NCBI GenBank assembly: GCA_038063875.1
Contig: JBBTUH010000002.1
Location: 12,530-76,529 of the forward strand
Origin: Patescibacteria group bacterium
GTDB lineage: Bacteria; Patescibacteriota; Microgenomatia; UBA10105; UBA927
Direction of reading: 5' to 3'
DNA: 64,000 bases
Made by a program: the position numbers and the translations under genes. The notes under the pieces were generated by a model, which worked only from the letters and a program-made list of their open reading frames with translations, made no database searches and had not been told where the DNA came from. Below are positions 5,870-39,336 of this stretch, piece after piece; position 1 is the first letter of the stretch, and each line of letters opens with the position of its first letter.

Positions 5870-7046
5870 AAAGCTTTAGACCTCTAAGGAGTGATTTCAC
5901 TTCTTTTTGATCACTCCATGGGTATTCAATAGTTCCTCTGCATAAACTTTTTTCGTGACCTTTTCCTGTAATAATCACACTATCTCCTTTTGTCGCTGTT
6001 TTTAATGCGAATTTGATGGCATCTTTTCGATTGGGAAATCGATAGACGGTCTTTCCGTCAGGAATGCCCGCTGCAATCTGATCCATAATCGTTTCTATAT
6101 CCTCTGTCCTGTAATCTTCTTCTGTAATGATACTGATATCAGCGTATGCTGCTGATTGTGCACCCATCATTGGACGTTTCGTGCTATCCCGAAGTCCGGC
6201 ACTGCCAAACACATGAATCACTCGTTTTTTGGTCATTTTGCGCACTGTTTTGAGCGCATTATCCAATGCATTTGGTGTGTGAGCAAAGTCGACAATCACC
6301 CGAAATGGCTTCTTTCCCACGACCTGCATGCGACCTACGACTCCTTGAAATGACGCAAGTGTTCGTTTCCAGACGAATGGTTTCACACCTAAGACTTCTG
6401 CCGTAGCAATTGCGGCGAGTGCATTGTAGCGATTAAATTCTCCCGGAAGCAGTATCTTAAGCGGATGCGTACTTGGATTGACCATACTATCCCTTCGAAT
6501 TCCATACGTCACATATCGTTTATGTTTAATGTATGGCAAGGATGCCGAAAATAAATCCGATTCATCACGATTGACGACTGCGACTCTGGAATGTTTAAAA
6601 AGGGATAACTTCGTAGCCAAATAATTCTCAAATGTGCCGTGCCAATCCAAATGCTCATGGGTCACGTTGGTAATCACGCCAACACTAAATGGGATACCTA
6701 AAACACGTGATTGTCCCAAGGCGTGAGAGGTCACCTCGAGAACTACATGCGTATCACCGTGGTTTAGTGCGTCCCGAAGATATTGTTGCACGGACCATGA
6801 GGTCGGCGTGGTGACATGAAAGCCGGTATCATACGAACGCCCAGCGATGACAGCGTGCACAGAGGTAATCATGGATGTTTTTATTTTTGCACGTTTGAGG
6901 ATTTCGTAGAGTATAGTCGCGGTTGTCGTCTTCCCGTCAGTACCTGTGACTCCAATAACCGTTAATTCTCGTGCGGGAAAGCCAAACCATATATTGGCGG
7001 CTATTGCGATGAAAAAATGGTATACCCTTTTTACGAGTTCTCCCAT
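5859..7046 (-). CDS. murE: Mur ligase, MurE-like (UDP-MurNAc-L-Ala-D-Glu:diamino acid ligase) lacking the usual N-terminal domain
   Basis: GVTGTDGKTTTATILYEIL P-loop and a DFAHTPNAL motif (MurE-type DYAHTPDAL). Only 395 aa versus the usual ~490. Position after ftsI matches murE. Confidence 0.6.
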   Translation of the reverse strand: MGELVKRVYHFFIAIAANIWFGFPARELTVIGVTGTDGKTTTATILYEILKRAKIKTSMITSVHAVIAGRSYDTGFHVTTPTSWSVQQYLRDALNHGDTHVVLEVTSHALGQSRVLGIPFSVGVITNVTHEHLDWHGTFENYLATKLSLFKHSRVAVVNRDESDLFSASLPYIKHKRYVTYGIRRDSMVNPSTHPLKILLPGEFNRYNALAAIATAEVLGVKPFVWKRTLASFQGVVGRMQVVGKKPFRVIVDFAHTPNALDNALKTVRKMTKKRVIHVFGSAGLRDSTKRPMMGAQSAAYADISIITEEDYRTEDIETIMDQIAAGIPDGKTVYRFPNRKDAIKFALKTATKGDSVIITGKGHEKSLCRGTIEYPWSDQKEVKSLLRGLKLYAS

Positions 7047-31785: not shown

Positions 31786-32721
31786 TCAAGTATCACAAGC
31801 AGACGTTTTAGTACATTTTTCCCCGTTTTCTTTCTTTATTGGTTGAGGGGATTCATATAAGGCTGTAAGGAACCGCTGAACTTGGAGATATGCCTGTGTT
31901 TTAACTTGTTCACGTAATTCTCCGACAGCTTCTTGAAAATCAGCGACCCAATTTGGCCCTTCTGCTTCTCTCGAGCGAAACTTGTCATGAATAGATTCGA
32001 TGGCTTCTTTAACCAACCCATGCGTGATAAACGGCTGAATTTCTTCCGCCACGGCAAAGGGACCGGATTTATAGTACAAGATCAAACTATGAATATCGTA
32101 GGCATCTTTTTGCTTATACCGAGAACCCACTACAATCCCTTTCATGGTCATGATGCCCACAATATCCGCCATCTTGACGGTAGTTCTACCCTCGGCTCCG
32201 TCGGGCAACTTGCCTTCCAGTATAATATCGATGGCATGATCAAACATTACATCAGCACCCCTAGCTTTTCTGACAAGAAAATCATCTTGAATTCGCTGGT
32301 GACGCTTGTTTTGCTCTGTTCCGCCATATTCAGGTCCTAAAAAATCAATCTGAACTTGTTCTTCCCCTTTGCTGGTTATCACATTTTTTACAAATGAATG
32401 CTGAATTGATTTCCCTTGTGAATCTAGTTTTGGCTCATACCCTCGTTGTTTGAGGATTGTGAGAATTGAATCGTATCCCGCTTCATTTATAAGTTGTGGA
32501 TTGACGGCGATATCAATATCCTTAGAACCAATATGTTTAAAATCCACACCAGATGGTTGGTACGCTTTCAATAGAAGATACGGAACCCAGCCTCCTACTA
32601 ACACCAAGCCATCACGATATGCACGGAGGGAAATCATGAGCTCAAGAAGGTATGACAACGAAACATCAGCAATGTTTGATGTAAATGTAATTTTTGTTCG
32701 ATCTCCTTGTTTTTGTGCCAT
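31786..32721 (-). CDS. putative nucleotidyltransferase (AbiEii/DUF1814-like fold)
   Basis: 311 aa. N-terminal VLVGGWVPYLLL...HIGSKDIDIAV resembles the hG[GS]...[DE]h[DE]h minimal NTase signature. A partner gene lies 9 bp upstream. Confidence 0.4.
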   Translation of the reverse strand: MAQKQGDRTKITFTSNIADVSLSYLLELMISLRAYRDGLVLVGGWVPYLLLKAYQPSGVDFKHIGSKDIDIAVNPQLINEAGYDSILTILKQRGYEPKLDSQGKSIQHSFVKNVITSKGEEQVQIDFLGPEYGGTEQNKRHQRIQDDFLVRKARGADVMFDHAIDIILEGKLPDGAEGRTTVKMADIVGIMTMKGIVVGSRYKQKDAYDIHSLILYYKSGPFAVAEEIQPFITHGLVKEAIESIHDKFRSREAEGPNWVADFQEAVGELREQVKTQAYLQVQRFLTALYESPQPIKKENGEKCTKTSACDT

Positions 32722-32729
32722 GGTTGTTG

Positions 32730-33830
32730 TTAAAAGCCCATCTTTTGCTCTCGCAAATGTTGGGCCTGTTCTGCTCCACGTGCCGGATTATTAAATAAGT
32801 CCATATATAGTTGAATATTTGATACCACAGGAGCCTTTTTCCCAGAAGGAGTAGATATCTGTTGTGTCTGATAAAAAACTCCTTCGTCGTAGGGAATATA
32901 TAGCTCAACATTAGCGCCATTTTCAACTTGTTGAAGACCGAGAAGTTTTTCCCAGTTTTCTAAATCACCAGATTGCTTAATATAAAACTGTAACTTTGTA
33001 ATTCCACGAATAAAGGGGGCAATCAGATCTGCGCCGCTAAAATACGATAAAGCAAATGGCAAGTTTTCAGCTTTCTCTAAAACAGAGGTAAGAAGTTCTG
33101 TAGGATTTTGCACGAAACTAAAAAAGGTAAACTTCTTTATTTTATAGGAGGGATATACTTTTTCCCACGCTTTTAGTAAAAAAACAGGATCCCTCAAAGA
33201 GAGCCTATCTTCTTGATTCCACTCGATTAATTCTTCTTCAATCATTCGATCCAATGTTTTGTGCGTTTGCCCTAGGCTAACGTTGGATTCTTCTGCTAAT
33301 TCACCTAACAGCCAAGTTTTTATCGGTTGAGTAAGTAATACACGAGTAATTCTGCTTGAAACTGGAGCAAAAAGATTTTTTAGCGGCACTTTTTGAACAA
33401 AAGGGTTTTTTTCAACAATTTTTTCGATATACAAAGAACCTTTTTTGAGATAGAAATTGCCAGCTAAATCCATAATTCCCACACCTTCTTCCTTAGCGAC
33501 TTGGCGAGCTTTTTCACCTATAAACTGTCCGGCAACAAAGGGTATGCTCCCAGCTTGAATTGCGTATGCTTTAACGTGACGGGCAACTTCTCTAAAACTA
33601 GCTGTTCCGCCTGTATATTTAACCTCAATAGCGACTTGATAATCCCTGCCTTCAACAGTGAGAATTCCTTGTGAATCAGGACTATTTGTGCCCATTGCTG
33701 GCACGACAAGACCCTCAAAAGCTAAACCCTGAGGAATACTGGCTGATAGTTGATTTATTATTGTCTTTTCGTTCATATAAGACTTTTCATTAAACAGTGA
33801 AAGTATATCAAATAGTGAAAATGATTGCAA
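32730..33830 (-). CDS. hypothetical protein with central winged-helix-like segment; putative partner/antitoxin of the downstream NTase (TTG start)
   Basis: 366 aa. The TTG start was confirmed by reading the codons. The central SSRITRVLLTQPIKTWLLGELAEESNVSLGQTHKTLDRMIEEELI looks like a wHTH. Confidence 0.35.
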   Translation of the reverse strand: MQSFSLFDILSLFNEKSYMNEKTIINQLSASIPQGLAFEGLVVPAMGTNSPDSQGILTVEGRDYQVAIEVKYTGGTASFREVARHVKAYAIQAGSIPFVAGQFIGEKARQVAKEEGVGIMDLAGNFYLKKGSLYIEKIVEKNPFVQKVPLKNLFAPVSSRITRVLLTQPIKTWLLGELAEESNVSLGQTHKTLDRMIEEELIEWNQEDRLSLRDPVFLLKAWEKVYPSYKIKKFTFFSFVQNPTELLTSVLEKAENLPFALSYFSGADLIAPFIRGITKLQFYIKQSGDLENWEKLLGLQQVENGANVELYIPYDEGVFYQTQQISTPSGKKAPVVSNIQLYMDLFNNPARGAEQAQHLREQKMGF

Positions 33831-33870: not shown

Positions 33871-34769
33871 TTAAGCAAAAATTGAAACTGGCAATCCTGC
33901 ACTTGAAGCATATGCATGTTTCATTTTTTCTTCCCATTTATACGGCTTTAATTCCATCATTTCATGGATAATTGATTCTCCAAATACATGCTGTAAATCC
34001 GATTCAAAAGTTTGCCCTAGATACTCTAACCTATCAAGCGTTGCCGTGTCAGCACGATTTCGTGATCGCAAACCTACAAACCGATCATGGAGGCTCACGG
34101 ATTTTTGATCAAATGTCCAGTCACCGTAGGTGAGTACTGCAAATTGTATATCTTTCAATCGACCGCTTTTCCCTCGAGAGAAAAGATACGCATGATCCTC
34201 TTCCTTCATATGATGAAGAAAATATGGATCAGCCCCATTTTGCTCTAATAACGCCAGCGTATTTTTTTTCAGAATATGTTGATGGATGGACGTCATCTGA
34301 CACGTTGTGCCACCCTAATTCATCCATTTGCCTTCGTCCCGCATGATCGATAAGCTTATGATCACGAAGCAAATCAGGATCAAGAGATGCGAGGGATGCT
34401 GGCGTATATCCTAATGCAAGTAATTTTTGTTTCTGCATGGGTGTCGCATGTGCAATTTTATCTGCCAAAAAATGTACATGCCGTGCGGATCCCACTATAT
34501 AATTAAATATTCCTTTCCAACGCACTGCATCCTCAGGAATTTGACAGCCCAAACATCCCCGACCCTTCTGTGACAGTTCTATTATTTTCAAATGTCTTTT
34601 CTGATACTGAACCCAATAAGTAACTTAGTACGGGAAATTCTTTAAGCGTTTCAATCACGAATGGATTGTCCACGCGATATTTCTCTATAAATTTGTCCAC
34701 CGGAATTTTTTGCATCATCAATTCTCTTTTTGACTTCTGCATTATTCCCTCTCGTAGTTCTTGTGACAT
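33871..34769 (-). pseudogene. probable frameshifted gene (three consecutive overlapping ORFs in three frames), unknown function
   Basis: ORFs 34533-34769, 34229-34591 and 33871-34296 overlap by 59 and 68 bp in different frames. A T8 homopolymer sits inside the second overlap. Confidence 0.3.
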
Positions 34770-38080: not shown

Positions 38081-38656
38081 TTATACCCCAATAACCTCTC
38101 GCAATAAGTTTCCTACCGCACTGCCAAAAAGAGGTAAATATTTTTTTATTTTGTTTTTATCAAGTTCTTCCGTGTGCCACCCATGATAACTTTTTGTTTT
38201 TTTACCTCTCGATATTAAATACAACATATCCAAAACAGCTTTTTCCGGCTCGGCAATATATGTCCCTCCTACCAAGTTAAATCCAAAAAACAGTTCCGAT
38301 TTTATTTTTGAATACTCGCACACAACATTCTTCAAAATTATCCGCTTGGAATGTCTGGAAGTGGCAAGCGTCAGATTATACAGTCCCTGATCTATAATTC
38401 CATACTTTGATAATGCGCTTTCAAAGCTTATATAGCTTGGATAATACAGTTGCGTGGCAAGTTTTTCTACTTCAAACGCATGACCTCGCAGCATATACAC
38501 GCCCCTAGCTATTTGGATTAGGACGGTGGCGTCTTTTAACCTCTTGATAGCCGTATGGATATGCGTCTCATCGGGAAACAGTTTTTTTATATCAGAAATG
38601 TCAAAAACATCCTTCCCCAGCTGTTCTATTTTTTCGACAAGCTCATCTTTTCTCAT
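38081..38656 (-). CDS. AbiEi-like antitoxin/transcriptional regulator (type IV TA, AbiEi_4 N-terminal domain)
   Basis: GVYMLRGH...YPSYISFESALSKYGIID matches the AbiEi N-domain consensus (RGVY...P.aYISleSAL..hGl). 4-bp overlap with the upstream NTase. Confidence 0.55.
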   Translation of the reverse strand: MRKDELVEKIEQLGKDVFDISDIKKLFPDETHIHTAIKRLKDATVLIQIARGVYMLRGHAFEVEKLATQLYYPSYISFESALSKYGIIDQGLYNLTLATSRHSKRIILKNVVCEYSKIKSELFFGFNLVGGTYIAEPEKAVLDMLYLISRGKKTKSYHGWHTEELDKNKIKKYLPLFGSAVGNLLREVIGV

Positions 38657-39336
38657 AAAGCAAACTCCTCCAACACCTTACGATGATTTATTGGGATGAA
38701 TGGATTTAACCGATCCATCAGTTGTTTTTGGGTATACTTAAATTCTTGTTTTATCGCAAATGCCGTATGTAACTTTTGGTGTATGTACCATGCATCAAAT
38801 AAATCCCTAGGCTCTCTTCTTTCCTTCGTTTCCAAAATCTTTACTTTATCCTTTAAAATGGCTTCAATAGTATACACGTTACCAGAAACTTCAATATTAT
38901 TAAAAGGACTTCGCAGAAGACCTACAGTAGAAGCAAAATCTCCCACATTTTTATTAATTTCTACTTTTATGCCGATAGGTATGGGTTTAAATCCCACATC
39001 AAACACTATCTTGGCAAAAAATGTGTTGCGTTTATCATATATATCTTTTACTTTTACTTCAGGCATAATGCTTGATAATTTCTCTATAGTACTTTTAAAA
39101 GAAGCGTACGGAATGCTTTTGAGTAAAGAAAAATCTAAATCCTCGGAAAATCGAAACGAACCATATGCAAGACGCAAAGCCGTCCCTCCTTTAAAAACCA
39201 ACTCCCTCTCAAATGAAGATGTGAAAAGCGTATCCAAAATATACATCTGGTAGTGCTCTTTAAGAATATTGTCAGTAACCGTACGATATTCAACCGCAAG
39301 TTTTTCCGCCTGATCTTGTGTTAACATACTATACAT
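38653..39336 (-). CDS. nucleotidyltransferase AbiEii/DUF1814 toxin family
   Basis: ELVFKGGTALRLAYGSFRFSEDLDFSL is the diagnostic DUF1814 signature (kGGTAL...R.SEDlDf). Confidence 0.8.
   Translation of the reverse strand: MYSMLTQDQAEKLAVEYRTVTDNILKEHYQMYILDTLFTSSFERELVFKGGTALRLAYGSFRFSEDLDFSLLKSIPYASFKSTIEKLSSIMPEVKVKDIYDKRNTFFAKIVFDVGFKPIPIGIKVEINKNVGDFASTVGLLRSPFNNIEVSGNVYTIEAILKDKVKILETKERREPRDLFDAWYIHQKLHTAFAIKQEFKYTQKQLMDRLNPFIPINHRKVLEEFAL

Follow-up and report, generated by a model that had tools for sequence, protein, structure and literature searches.

A divergent COG4861–DUF1814 gene pair of putative AbiE/MenAT type in a Patescibacteria-like genome

Canonical AbiE systems, as described in Streptococcus agalactiae and Lactococcus lactis, are bicistronic with the gene for the regulator/antitoxin in first position, followed by that of the NTase AbiEii (PF08843/COG2253). 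The antitoxin AbiEi (COG5340) is about 195 aa long, with an N-terminal winged helix and no nuclease-like domain, and the AbiE operator consists of two 23-bp inverted repeats. In the type VII toxin–antitoxin (TA) systems MenAT1 and MenAT3, the MenT toxins extend tRNAs with nucleotides at the 3' end; MenA1 is a protein of 68 aa without a DNA-binding domain, while MenA3 belongs to COG5340. The linkage of COG4861 proteins with DUF1814 nucleotidyltransferases (NTases) was predicted to be AbiE-like in 2014 (Dy et al., PMC3985639), and COG4861–DUF1814 also appears in a list of TA/Abi defence-island families in which PF09952 is given as the equivalent of COG4861 (PMC7251935). In MenA2–MenT2 of Mycobacterium tuberculosis (Rv0837c–Rv0836c), and in the COG4861–COG4849/DUF1814 pairs predicted by Dy et al., the gene for a DUF1814-type NTase directly follows that for a larger COG4861/AbiEi_2 protein (PMC7450476, PMC7319586, PMC3985639). 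MenT2 (Rv0836c), the sole COG4861-linked NTase to have been studied, was non-toxic in M. smegmatis and E. coli (PMC7450476). The class was predicted earlier and has never been characterised, and the pair described here is a fairly ordinary example of it with one under-described extra domain.

The pair was found in a 64-kb stretch of DNA (the window) from an uncultured, small-genome lineage, apparently Patescibacteria-like on the evidence of the closest homologues, where it represents a clean, intact copy of this COG4861-linked AbiE/MenAT branch. The two adjacent open reading frames pointed out in a first-pass annotation are both genuine. They lie on the minus strand as a bicistronic unit, A and then B, with an 8-nt gap between them, and are preceded by promoter elements located with a promoter scan, as follows.

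31786..32721, minus strand: gene B, 311 aa, pol-beta-superfamily NTase of a divergent DUF1814/AbiEii-like branch; putative toxin
32722..32729, minus strand: intergenic spacer, 8 nt from the A stop codon to the B ATG
32730..33776, minus strand: gene A, 348 aa, AbiEi_2/COG4861-type, putatively both antitoxin and autorepressor; start revised to ATG 33776
33802..33807, minus strand: -10 box TATACT of the extended type (TG in front), at a distance of 17 nt from the -35 box; invariant in the alignment
33825..33830, minus strand: -35 box TTGCAA, whose first three bases are the TTG earlier taken as the start codon

Gene A had originally been read from this TTG, giving a protein of 366 aa. As the TTG forms part of a conserved -35 box, the start is most likely ATG 33776, which yields 348 aa. 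Across an alignment of 10 loci, sequence conservation starts at the -35 hexamer, upstream of which the sequences are unrelated; the promoter and a nested palindrome described below are conserved in all 10, while the flanks differ. These alignments indicate that the pair has its own predicted sigma-70-like promoter. Three small ORFs further upstream (78, 120 and 141 aa) were considered as a third component of the module and discarded, since they match no family and none of the other loci has them. Scanning the region for Rfam families and tRNAs gave no hits.

Protein B had been proposed to be an NTase from its N-terminus, and its predicted structure and motifs bear this out. The AlphaFold2 model (pLDDT 89.4) gave Foldseek matches to PDB entries with E-values from 3e-4 to 3e-3 and probabilities of 0.99–1.00 at the top of the list, the best being the DUF1814 NTase JHP933 of Helicobacter pylori (4ok0, E 3e-4, probability 1.00) and TglT/MenT3 (6j7r, E 1e-3, together with 6j7o and 6j7q). 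The TM-scores reported by Foldseek for these two proteins are modest (0.37–0.48). With respect to JHP933 (225 aa), B is 14% identical at TM-scores within this range, and carries extra beta-strands and a longer helical tail; with respect to MenT3 the identity is 11–14% and the TM-scores are about 0.4. All four DUF1814/AbiEii motifs, as defined by Dy et al. (hG[GS], DhD, K-x6-R and +DxxD; PMC3985639), are found in B and are kept across about 80 bacterial and archaeal relatives from many phyla, as follows.

32587..32595, minus strand: B motif I, G43-G44-W45 (hG[GS]), invariant in 79/79 relatives
32512..32526, minus strand: B motif II, S66-K-D68-I-D70, with the catalytic aspartates, invariant in 79/79 relatives
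32344..32346, minus strand: B D126, third catalytic carboxylate, invariant in 81/81 relatives
32095..32142, minus strand: B motifs III, K194-x6-R201 (KLxAaxxR type), and IV, K205-D206-A-Y208-D209 (+DxxD), invariant or nearly so

Motifs I and II lie farther apart in B, at a spacing of 23 residues. S66, which stands two residues ahead of the first catalytic aspartate and is invariant in 79/79 relatives, occupies the position of the phospho-acceptors T65 of AbiEii, S78 of MenT3 and T39 of MenT1 (PMC11375011; bioRxiv 10.64898/2026.01.19.700257); by analogy, S66 is predicted to be the phospho-acceptor of B. Sequence and predicted structure identify B as an intact pol-beta-type NTase with invariant catalytic residues. 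Downstream of B, the sequence shows no trace of the C-terminal extension that its long-form homologues carry.

An NTase with a cognate regulator might alternatively serve to modify antibiotics, in the manner of ANT or Lnu enzymes, and ANT(4') does occur far down the Foldseek list for B. The best matches of B are, however, DUF1814 toxins, it carries the DUF1814-specific motifs III and IV, neither an NCBIfam nor a resistance-family match was obtained, and an obligatory AbiEi_2 partner is atypical of resistance genes. Structural matches to ANT(2'') and LnuA were also recovered, and these come from the C-terminal domain of A, not from B. We give this reading almost no weight.

Protein A consists, as judged from its sequence and predicted structure, of three domains, with a PD-(D/E)xK nuclease-like domain at the N-terminus, a winged helix in the middle and AbiEi_2 at the C-terminus, as follows.

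33402..33776, minus strand: A residues 1–125, PD-(D/E)xK nuclease-like domain; motif residues D34 and E51-V-K53, conservation also at D103 and N107
33192..33383, minus strand: A residues 132–195, winged helix-turn-helix (HTH_24, E 0.006; MarR, ArsR and IclR matches; secondary structure of the model)
32733..33188, minus strand: A residues 197–348, AbiEi_2 (PF09952), an NTase-like fold without DxD, with Q263-x-Y265 instead

The central winged-helix segment that had been suggested for A is therefore present, at residues 132–195, whereas the nuclease-like domain ahead of it had gone unrecognised. It is this domain that accounts for the extra length of A, which had been called unusually large and is of normal size for the COG4861/AbiEi_2 class. 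The N-terminal domain has a fold like that of restriction endonucleases and carries a D...(D/E)xK motif on its strands 2 and 3, the combination that defines PD-(D/E)xK proteins. In a quarter to a third of relatives other residues stand in place of E51 and K53, and at about 9/80 loci a short form of A lacks the domain altogether while B is retained. We found no discussion of such a domain in the AbiE or MenAT literature. The C-terminal domain, matched by PF09952 in A (27.9 bits for the 366-aa reading, against a Pfam gathering score of 21) and in 49/50 of its homologues, has the NTase-like fold common to the AbiEi antitoxicity domain, and is presumed to be the antitoxicity domain of A. In the scan of the homologues the 348-aa reading itself was missing from the matches listed, apparently removed by a speed filter. 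A differs in its make-up from both MenA1 and MenA3, and from AbiEi in possessing the nuclease-like domain.

Searches with family models help to place the pair. The first-pass annotation is supported in its core, an AbiE-like operon in which the regulator gene precedes that of the NTase: A exceeds the PF09952 cutoff, and B combines an NTase fold with the four DUF1814 motifs, so that B does not fall outside the NTase fold, nor A into an unrelated enzymatic family. Of the AbiE families proposed for comparison, B lacks a match to PF08843 at E <= 1 and A has none to PF13338 or PF11459, nor to PF17194 or the PADLOC AbiEi models. No PADLOC AbiE model matched B, PF12281 matched it weakly (16.1 bits against a threshold of 26.3), and neither protein was matched by NCBIfam. 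Sequence and profile searches of the PDB with A, B and a plasmid relative returned nothing, or chance matches with E about 1. Canonical AbiE models (PADLOC, PF13338, PF11459) miss A and B, yet strongly detect another AbiE pair about 5 kb away in the window, which served as a positive control (76.6 bits for its AbiEii with PF08843, 84 bits with PADLOC). This other pair, implied earlier as pair #2, is a different, canonical AbiE pair, and a tblastn search found no second paralogous copy of A–B within the 64-kb window. Aligning the profiles of A and B with the AbiEi and AbiEii of the canonical pair by hhalign was uninformative, the template in each case being a single sequence (probability 0.1). 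A link to PF08843 emerges through relatives: plasmid relatives of B, about 30% identical to it (E 1e-29), exceed the PF08843 gathering score, one such plasmid pair has been named AbiEi antitoxin and AbiEii/AbiGii toxin by PGAP, and among 10 intermediate relatives PF08843 was the best match in nine and above the cutoff in three. The MNT–HEPN families, also named for comparison, do not fit: at E <= 1 no HEPN or NTP_transf_2 match was obtained for either protein, and B is partnered by a winged-helix protein carrying AbiEi_2.

Because B lacks PF08843 and A lacks PF13338 and PF11459, the pair is assigned by sequence to the COG4861–DUF1814 class (MenA2–MenT2 type), a sister to canonical AbiE, and not to canonical AbiE itself. 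The likeness to MenA2–MenT2 lies in the gene order and relative size given in published descriptions, in the PF09952 match of A and in a near-obligatory linkage of the two genes (78/80 loci); B is so divergent that it misses PF08843. As the class was predicted in 2014, the field's view of these systems is unchanged; as both the PADLOC AbiE models and PF08843 miss this branch, COG4861-linked systems are likely under-counted in candidate-phyla genomes.

The region of the promoter and of the first codons of gene A contains a putative operator, identified with a repeat finder as a 14-nt direct repeat spaced by 18 nt together with one inverted pair, as follows.

33767..33820, minus strand: putative operator, four 7-nt half-sites in a nested palindrome, conserved in 10 loci
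33820-33814, minus strand: operator box 1, TTTCACT
33802-33796, minus strand: operator box 2, TTTCACT
33791-33785, minus strand: operator box 3, AATGAAA (AGTGAAA in relatives)
33773-33767, minus strand: operator box 4, AACGAAA (AGTGAAA in relatives), in codons 2–3 of A

This 54-bp element extends across the -10 box and the leader and takes in the start codon. TTTCACT occurs six times in the window, two of these occurrences being at the putative operator. In having four 7-nt half-sites, the element differs from the operator of AbiE. A nested palindrome in this position suggests that the operon is autorepressed, presumably through binding of A.

We consider it probable (roughly 0.6) that A and B are a two-gene module of AbiE/MenAT type, autonomous and spread by horizontal transfer, in which a COG4861/AbiEi_2-type A is followed by a DUF1814-like NTase B and which would work as follows. 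By analogy with AbiE and MenAT1/3, the winged helix of A would bind the four TTTCACT half-sites and repress the operon. The C-terminal domain of A would dock on B and neutralise it, through auto-phosphorylation of Ser66, occlusion of the active site, or both. Should phage infection or loss of the element deplete A, freshly synthesised B, lacking the phosphate, would add nucleotides to tRNA 3' ends and so stop translation, and the expected outcome would be growth arrest, in the sense of abortive infection or addiction. The TA or abortive-infection function of the pair is inferred from these related systems. MenT3/TglT is one of the top two structural hits for B, and its phospho-acceptor position corresponds to S66 (PMC11375011). 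The proposal yields concrete hypotheses in the predicted phospho-acceptor Ser66, the 54-bp operator and the nuclease-like domain of the 'antitoxin'.

AbiEi contains nothing equivalent to the conserved nuclease-like domain of A, and this mechanism leaves the domain unexplained; our guess is that it may be a DNA-binding or sensing accessory, possibly a second effector. Were it a working nuclease or DNA sensor, the COG4861-type 'antitoxin' would be more than a repressor and neutraliser, and the system would be either a dual-effector defence, with a DNA nuclease and a tRNA-modifying NTase, or a sensor-coupled TA. We regard this as unlikely; if true, the non-toxicity of MenT2 could reflect a need for activation through the PD-(D/E)xK domain. 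A further departure from classical TA, which seems similarly improbable, would have the domain act as the effector of a defence or regulatory system, a DNA nuclease brought to its target by the winged helix, with B as its regulator or partner, nucleotidylating A or a nucleic acid or making a signal. Against this stand the loci that keep B alongside a short A, which indicate that the core module works without the N-terminal domain, and the replacement of E51 and K53 in many relatives. B, moreover, retains every toxin-type DUF1814 motif and the phospho-acceptor serine, and the C-terminal domain of A matches the AbiEi antitoxicity domain.

The distribution of the module is patchy, with 425 of 185,579 species genomes carrying it. 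Bacteria and archaea alike keep the order of the two genes although the surroundings are unrelated: A lies directly upstream of B in 78/80 GTDB loci, the remaining two ending at a contig edge. Neighbours at the relatives' loci include an IS3 element, a conjugative element with relaxase, TrwB and resolvase, a ParE/HTH TA island and Fic. Relatives occur on plasmids (72 plasmid records), and no relative of B was found in 50,697 phage records. Within the window the module is chromosomal, with no mobility genes adjacent to it. This setting, and the published non-toxicity of MenT2 (PMC7450476), would suit a decaying or domesticated remnant without current toxin activity, for example a transcription factor and an NTase for housekeeping RNA or nucleotide modification. 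Such a fate is distinctly doubtful, as both genes are intact with all catalytic and family-specific residues conserved, the promoter and operator are intact too, and the patchy distribution and association with mobile elements are unlike a housekeeping role. A disruption of gene A in a near-identical contig (L008) could have been taken to mean that B is tolerated without A; it was rejected as an assembly artefact, since it involves seven single-base homopolymer deletions and no substitutions at 3.7x coverage.

The pair was correctly noted at first to sit amid glycan genes: its neighbours on the two sides encode three NAD-dependent epimerase/dehydratases together with methyltransferases and GT1 glycosyltransferases. 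On these grounds the pair might serve the glycan locus, with A regulating polysaccharide genes and B acting as a sugar-nucleotide or glycan-modifying nucleotidyltransferase, and two other loci, those of a 70%-identical relative (L005) and of L014, likewise adjoin epimerases. Only two of 82 independent loci, however, have such neighbours. Conservation ends exactly at the module's own promoter, B has a pol-beta/DUF1814 fold and not that of a sugar-1-phosphate nucleotidyltransferase, and the operator motif appears nowhere else in the glycan region. A glycan function is thus very improbable and largely refuted. The same count of neighbours (2/82) gives no support to the earlier idea that the pair protects a glycan or receptor locus. 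For an autonomous AbiE/MenAT-like module, the position within the glycan genes most likely came about by chance, through insertion into a variable region.

The pair lies on the minus strand, with its two open reading frames at the coordinates given by the first-pass annotation, and consists of an upstream gene, A (a putative AbiEi_2/COG4861-type antitoxin), and a downstream gene, B (a putative nucleotidyltransferase toxin). The two are adjacent as described, although the gap is 8 nt and not 9 bp:

31786..32721, minus strand: gene B, 311 aa from ATG
32730..33830, minus strand: gene A, 366-aa reading from TTG
Protein A, residues about 132-195: winged helix

The TTG is most likely not the start of A. 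It makes up the leading three bases of a sigma-70-like -35 box, in a promoter composed of TTGCAA (-35), 17 nt and TG-n-TATACT (extended -10). When regions 5' of A homologues were aligned from ten loci with otherwise unrelated flanks, the conserved stretch started exactly at the -35 box and reached an ATG, after which the proteins begin M-[NS]-E-N-T-L-I-N-Q-L. Together with the length of most A homologues (347-348 aa), this upstream sequence evidence moves the start to 33776, and gene A is best read as 32730..33776, encoding 348 aa. The same promoter holds two of the six copies of TTTCACT in the 64-kb window, 18 nt apart; joined by two inverted copies, they make up a nested palindrome whose centre is at about 33793/33794:

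33820-33814: putative operator box 1, TTTCACT
33802-33796: putative operator box 2, TTTCACT, overlapping the -10 box
33791-33785: putative operator box 3, AATGAAA
33773-33767: putative operator box 4, AACGAAA, covering codons 2-3 of A

In relatives, boxes 3 and 4 read AGTGAAA, the perfect complement, and at the distant loci L018 and L019 (L numbers denote loci carrying relatives of the pair) the half-site is kept with a different spacing. AbiEi and Rv2827c repress their own operons by binding inverted repeats, which this palindrome resembles (PMC3985639, PMC7319586), and by analogy regulation would pass through the four boxes, with A acting as repressor of the A-B operon. Between this promoter and a divergent epimerase gene, the gap is filled by three co-oriented, partly overlapping putative small ORFs (33871-34769, minus strand; 78, 120 and 141 aa). 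None of the three matched a Pfam, NCBIfam or PADLOC model; the sister contig L008 has gene calls for them too, and no other pair-carrying locus has them.

The structural model of A (pLDDT 88.1) has three domains. Read as 366 aa, A scores above the PF09952 (AbiEi_2) gathering cutoff at residues 217-363 (27.9 bits versus 21), and 49 of 50 A homologues match this family. For the 348-aa reading PF09952 was not listed, although the matched region is identical (32733-33830 versus 32733-33776), presumably a HMMER speed-filter effect and a caution for automated annotation of the family. The N-terminal domain is nuclease-like (PD-(D/E)xK-type), and a nuclease-centred system, in which this domain would be the working part, is the weightiest of four alternative explanations. 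At about nine of 80 loci, A is short and lacks the domain, which is therefore accessory to a core of winged helix and C-terminal domain. These short forms (L026, L033, L036, L040, L041, L043, L048 and L082, plus L028, cut at a contig end) have about 220-230 aa, comprise winged helix and AbiEi_2 domain, accompany an intact B, and come mostly from Pseudomonadota, Myxococcota or Bdellovibrio-like MAGs. We found no paper discussing the nuclease-like domain. In L008, a metagenome contig that is 98.8% identical over 8 kb, the equivalent of window 32730-33830 (5886-6991) has gene A in three pieces; its single-base deletions, seven in all and six within homopolymer runs, without substitutions and at 3.7x coverage, led us to reject a pseudogene in favour of an assembly artefact.

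Against Pfam, B gave a sole, sub-threshold match to NTP_transf_8 (16.1 bits versus 26.3) and none to AbiEii (PF08843); PADLOC and NCBIfam models did not match either. Its confident AlphaFold model (pLDDT 89.4, pTM 0.86) best matched the solved DUF1814 proteins JHP933 (4ok0, E 3e-4) and TglT/MenT3 (6j7r, 6j7o, 6j7q), followed by the generic Pol lambda/beta nucleotidyltransferase core. Antibiotic modification, with B as the modifying transferase, is the least weighty alternative. Among 79-81 relatives from genome loci, G43-G44-W45, H63, G65, S66, D68, D70, D126, K194, K205-D206, Y208 and D209 are 100% conserved, and 79 of 81 retain R201; these residues match motifs I-IV in the DUF1814 definition of Dy et al. 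(PMC3985639). A decayed remnant, second in weight, would be a pair with no current toxin activity; this conservation speaks against it. S66 precedes the first catalytic Asp by two residues, the position of the phospho-acceptors T65 of AbiEii, S78 of MenT3 and T39 of MenT1 (PMC11375011; bioRxiv 10.64898/2026.01.19.700257), and is by analogy a predicted phospho-acceptor. For plasmid-borne relatives at about 30% identity (E 1e-29, 86-93% coverage), PF08843 scores exceed the gathering cutoff (26.4 and 28.5 bits versus 22.5), and PGAP names one of these relatives an AbiEii/AbiGii family toxin; for ten intermediate relatives, PF08843 was the best Pfam match in nine and above cutoff in three. Because of these fold matches, motifs and PF08843-matching relatives, and the lack of a direct model match, B forms a divergent branch within the DUF1814/AbiEii superfamily, one missed by current family models.

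Overall, the evidence best supports reading the pair as an AbiE/MenAT-type module in the COG4861-DUF1814 subclass, which was predicted in 2014 by Dy et al. and is among listed defence-island families (PMC3985639, PMC7251935). The AbiE-like interpretation of the first-pass annotation is supported by the AbiEi_2 match of A and the DUF1814 fold and motifs of B; the families to which it had pointed (PF08843, PF13338 and PF11459) gave no match for the pair, nor did any PADLOC AbiE model, and the pair does not qualify as canonical AbiE. By analogy with characterised systems, the C-terminal domain of A would neutralise B through Ser66 auto-phosphorylation, active-site occlusion or both, and B, when free, would lengthen tRNAs at their 3' ends and so halt translation. 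The main caveat on the toxin reading is MenT2, which showed no toxicity in either of two hosts (PMC7450476). The pair belongs to a known but experimentally uncharacterised kind, and only two features, the nuclease-like domain in its 'antitoxin' and its four-box operator, go beyond published work.

By contrast, the AbiE models strongly detect a second, canonical AbiE pair in this window. It lies about 5 kb off in the same glycan locus (38081-39336, minus strand) and is probably the 'pair #2' of the first-pass annotation:

38653-39336, minus strand: AbiEii, 227 aa (PF08843 76.6 bits, PADLOC AbiEii 84 bits)
38081-38656, minus strand: AbiEi, 191 aa (PADLOC AbiEi 105 bits; no Pfam match)

Its genes overlap by 4 nt, and the toxin gene precedes the antitoxin gene, the opposite of the classical AbiE arrangement.

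The protein collection contained 1341 homologues of B, most of them patescibacterial (WWE3, Roizman-, Woese- and Pacebacteria), and a profile search against 1.84 billion representatives recovered 2323 clusters at 50% identity. Relatives occurred in 425 of 185,579 species genomes, which belong to many bacterial phyla and to the archaeal Thermoplasmatota and Methanobacteriota, and in 72 plasmid records; none were found in phage genomes. Many of the closest homologues (82-84% identity; proteins P0002, P0016, P0025 and P0051; loci L001 (6001-7614), L010 and L011) have 526-542 aa, with an extra C-terminal domain of ~230-250 aa without a Pfam match. Window B ends just past the linker (…PQPIKKE), with no remnant of that domain downstream. 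Since more distant homologues are all short, the domain was acquired within a single subclade; window B lacks it.

At 78 of 80 genome loci, the B homologue had an A homologue directly 5' of it in the same orientation; in the other two, B was at a contig edge. The neighbourhoods were unrelated to each other: one locus had an IS3 transposase next to tryptophan synthase genes, another a ParE/HTH/RHH island, and further loci Fic genes. At L091-L093, a copy 65% identical sits in a relaxase/TrwB/resolvase element with a diversity-generating retroelement; its neighbours (Replic_Relax, TrwB/DUF87 ATPase, resolvase, KilA-N, Bro-N, an SLFN/AlbA_2 protein, and RVT_1 with bAvd) look like an integrative or conjugative element. 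The window pair itself is flanked by NAD-dependent sugar epimerase/dehydratases and has methyltransferases and GT1 glycosyltransferases close by, so its placement inside a glycan locus stands for this window. A function in that locus, third in weight among the alternatives, would draw on this setting; epimerase neighbours are present at only two of 82 independent loci, and the glycan link is therefore not a property of the module. The 64-kb window contains no tRNA genes. GC skew stays below zero throughout, in all 1-kb bins (1-64000), and cumulative skew falls monotonically to -7.7; with no skew switch, the window appears to lie within a single replichore.
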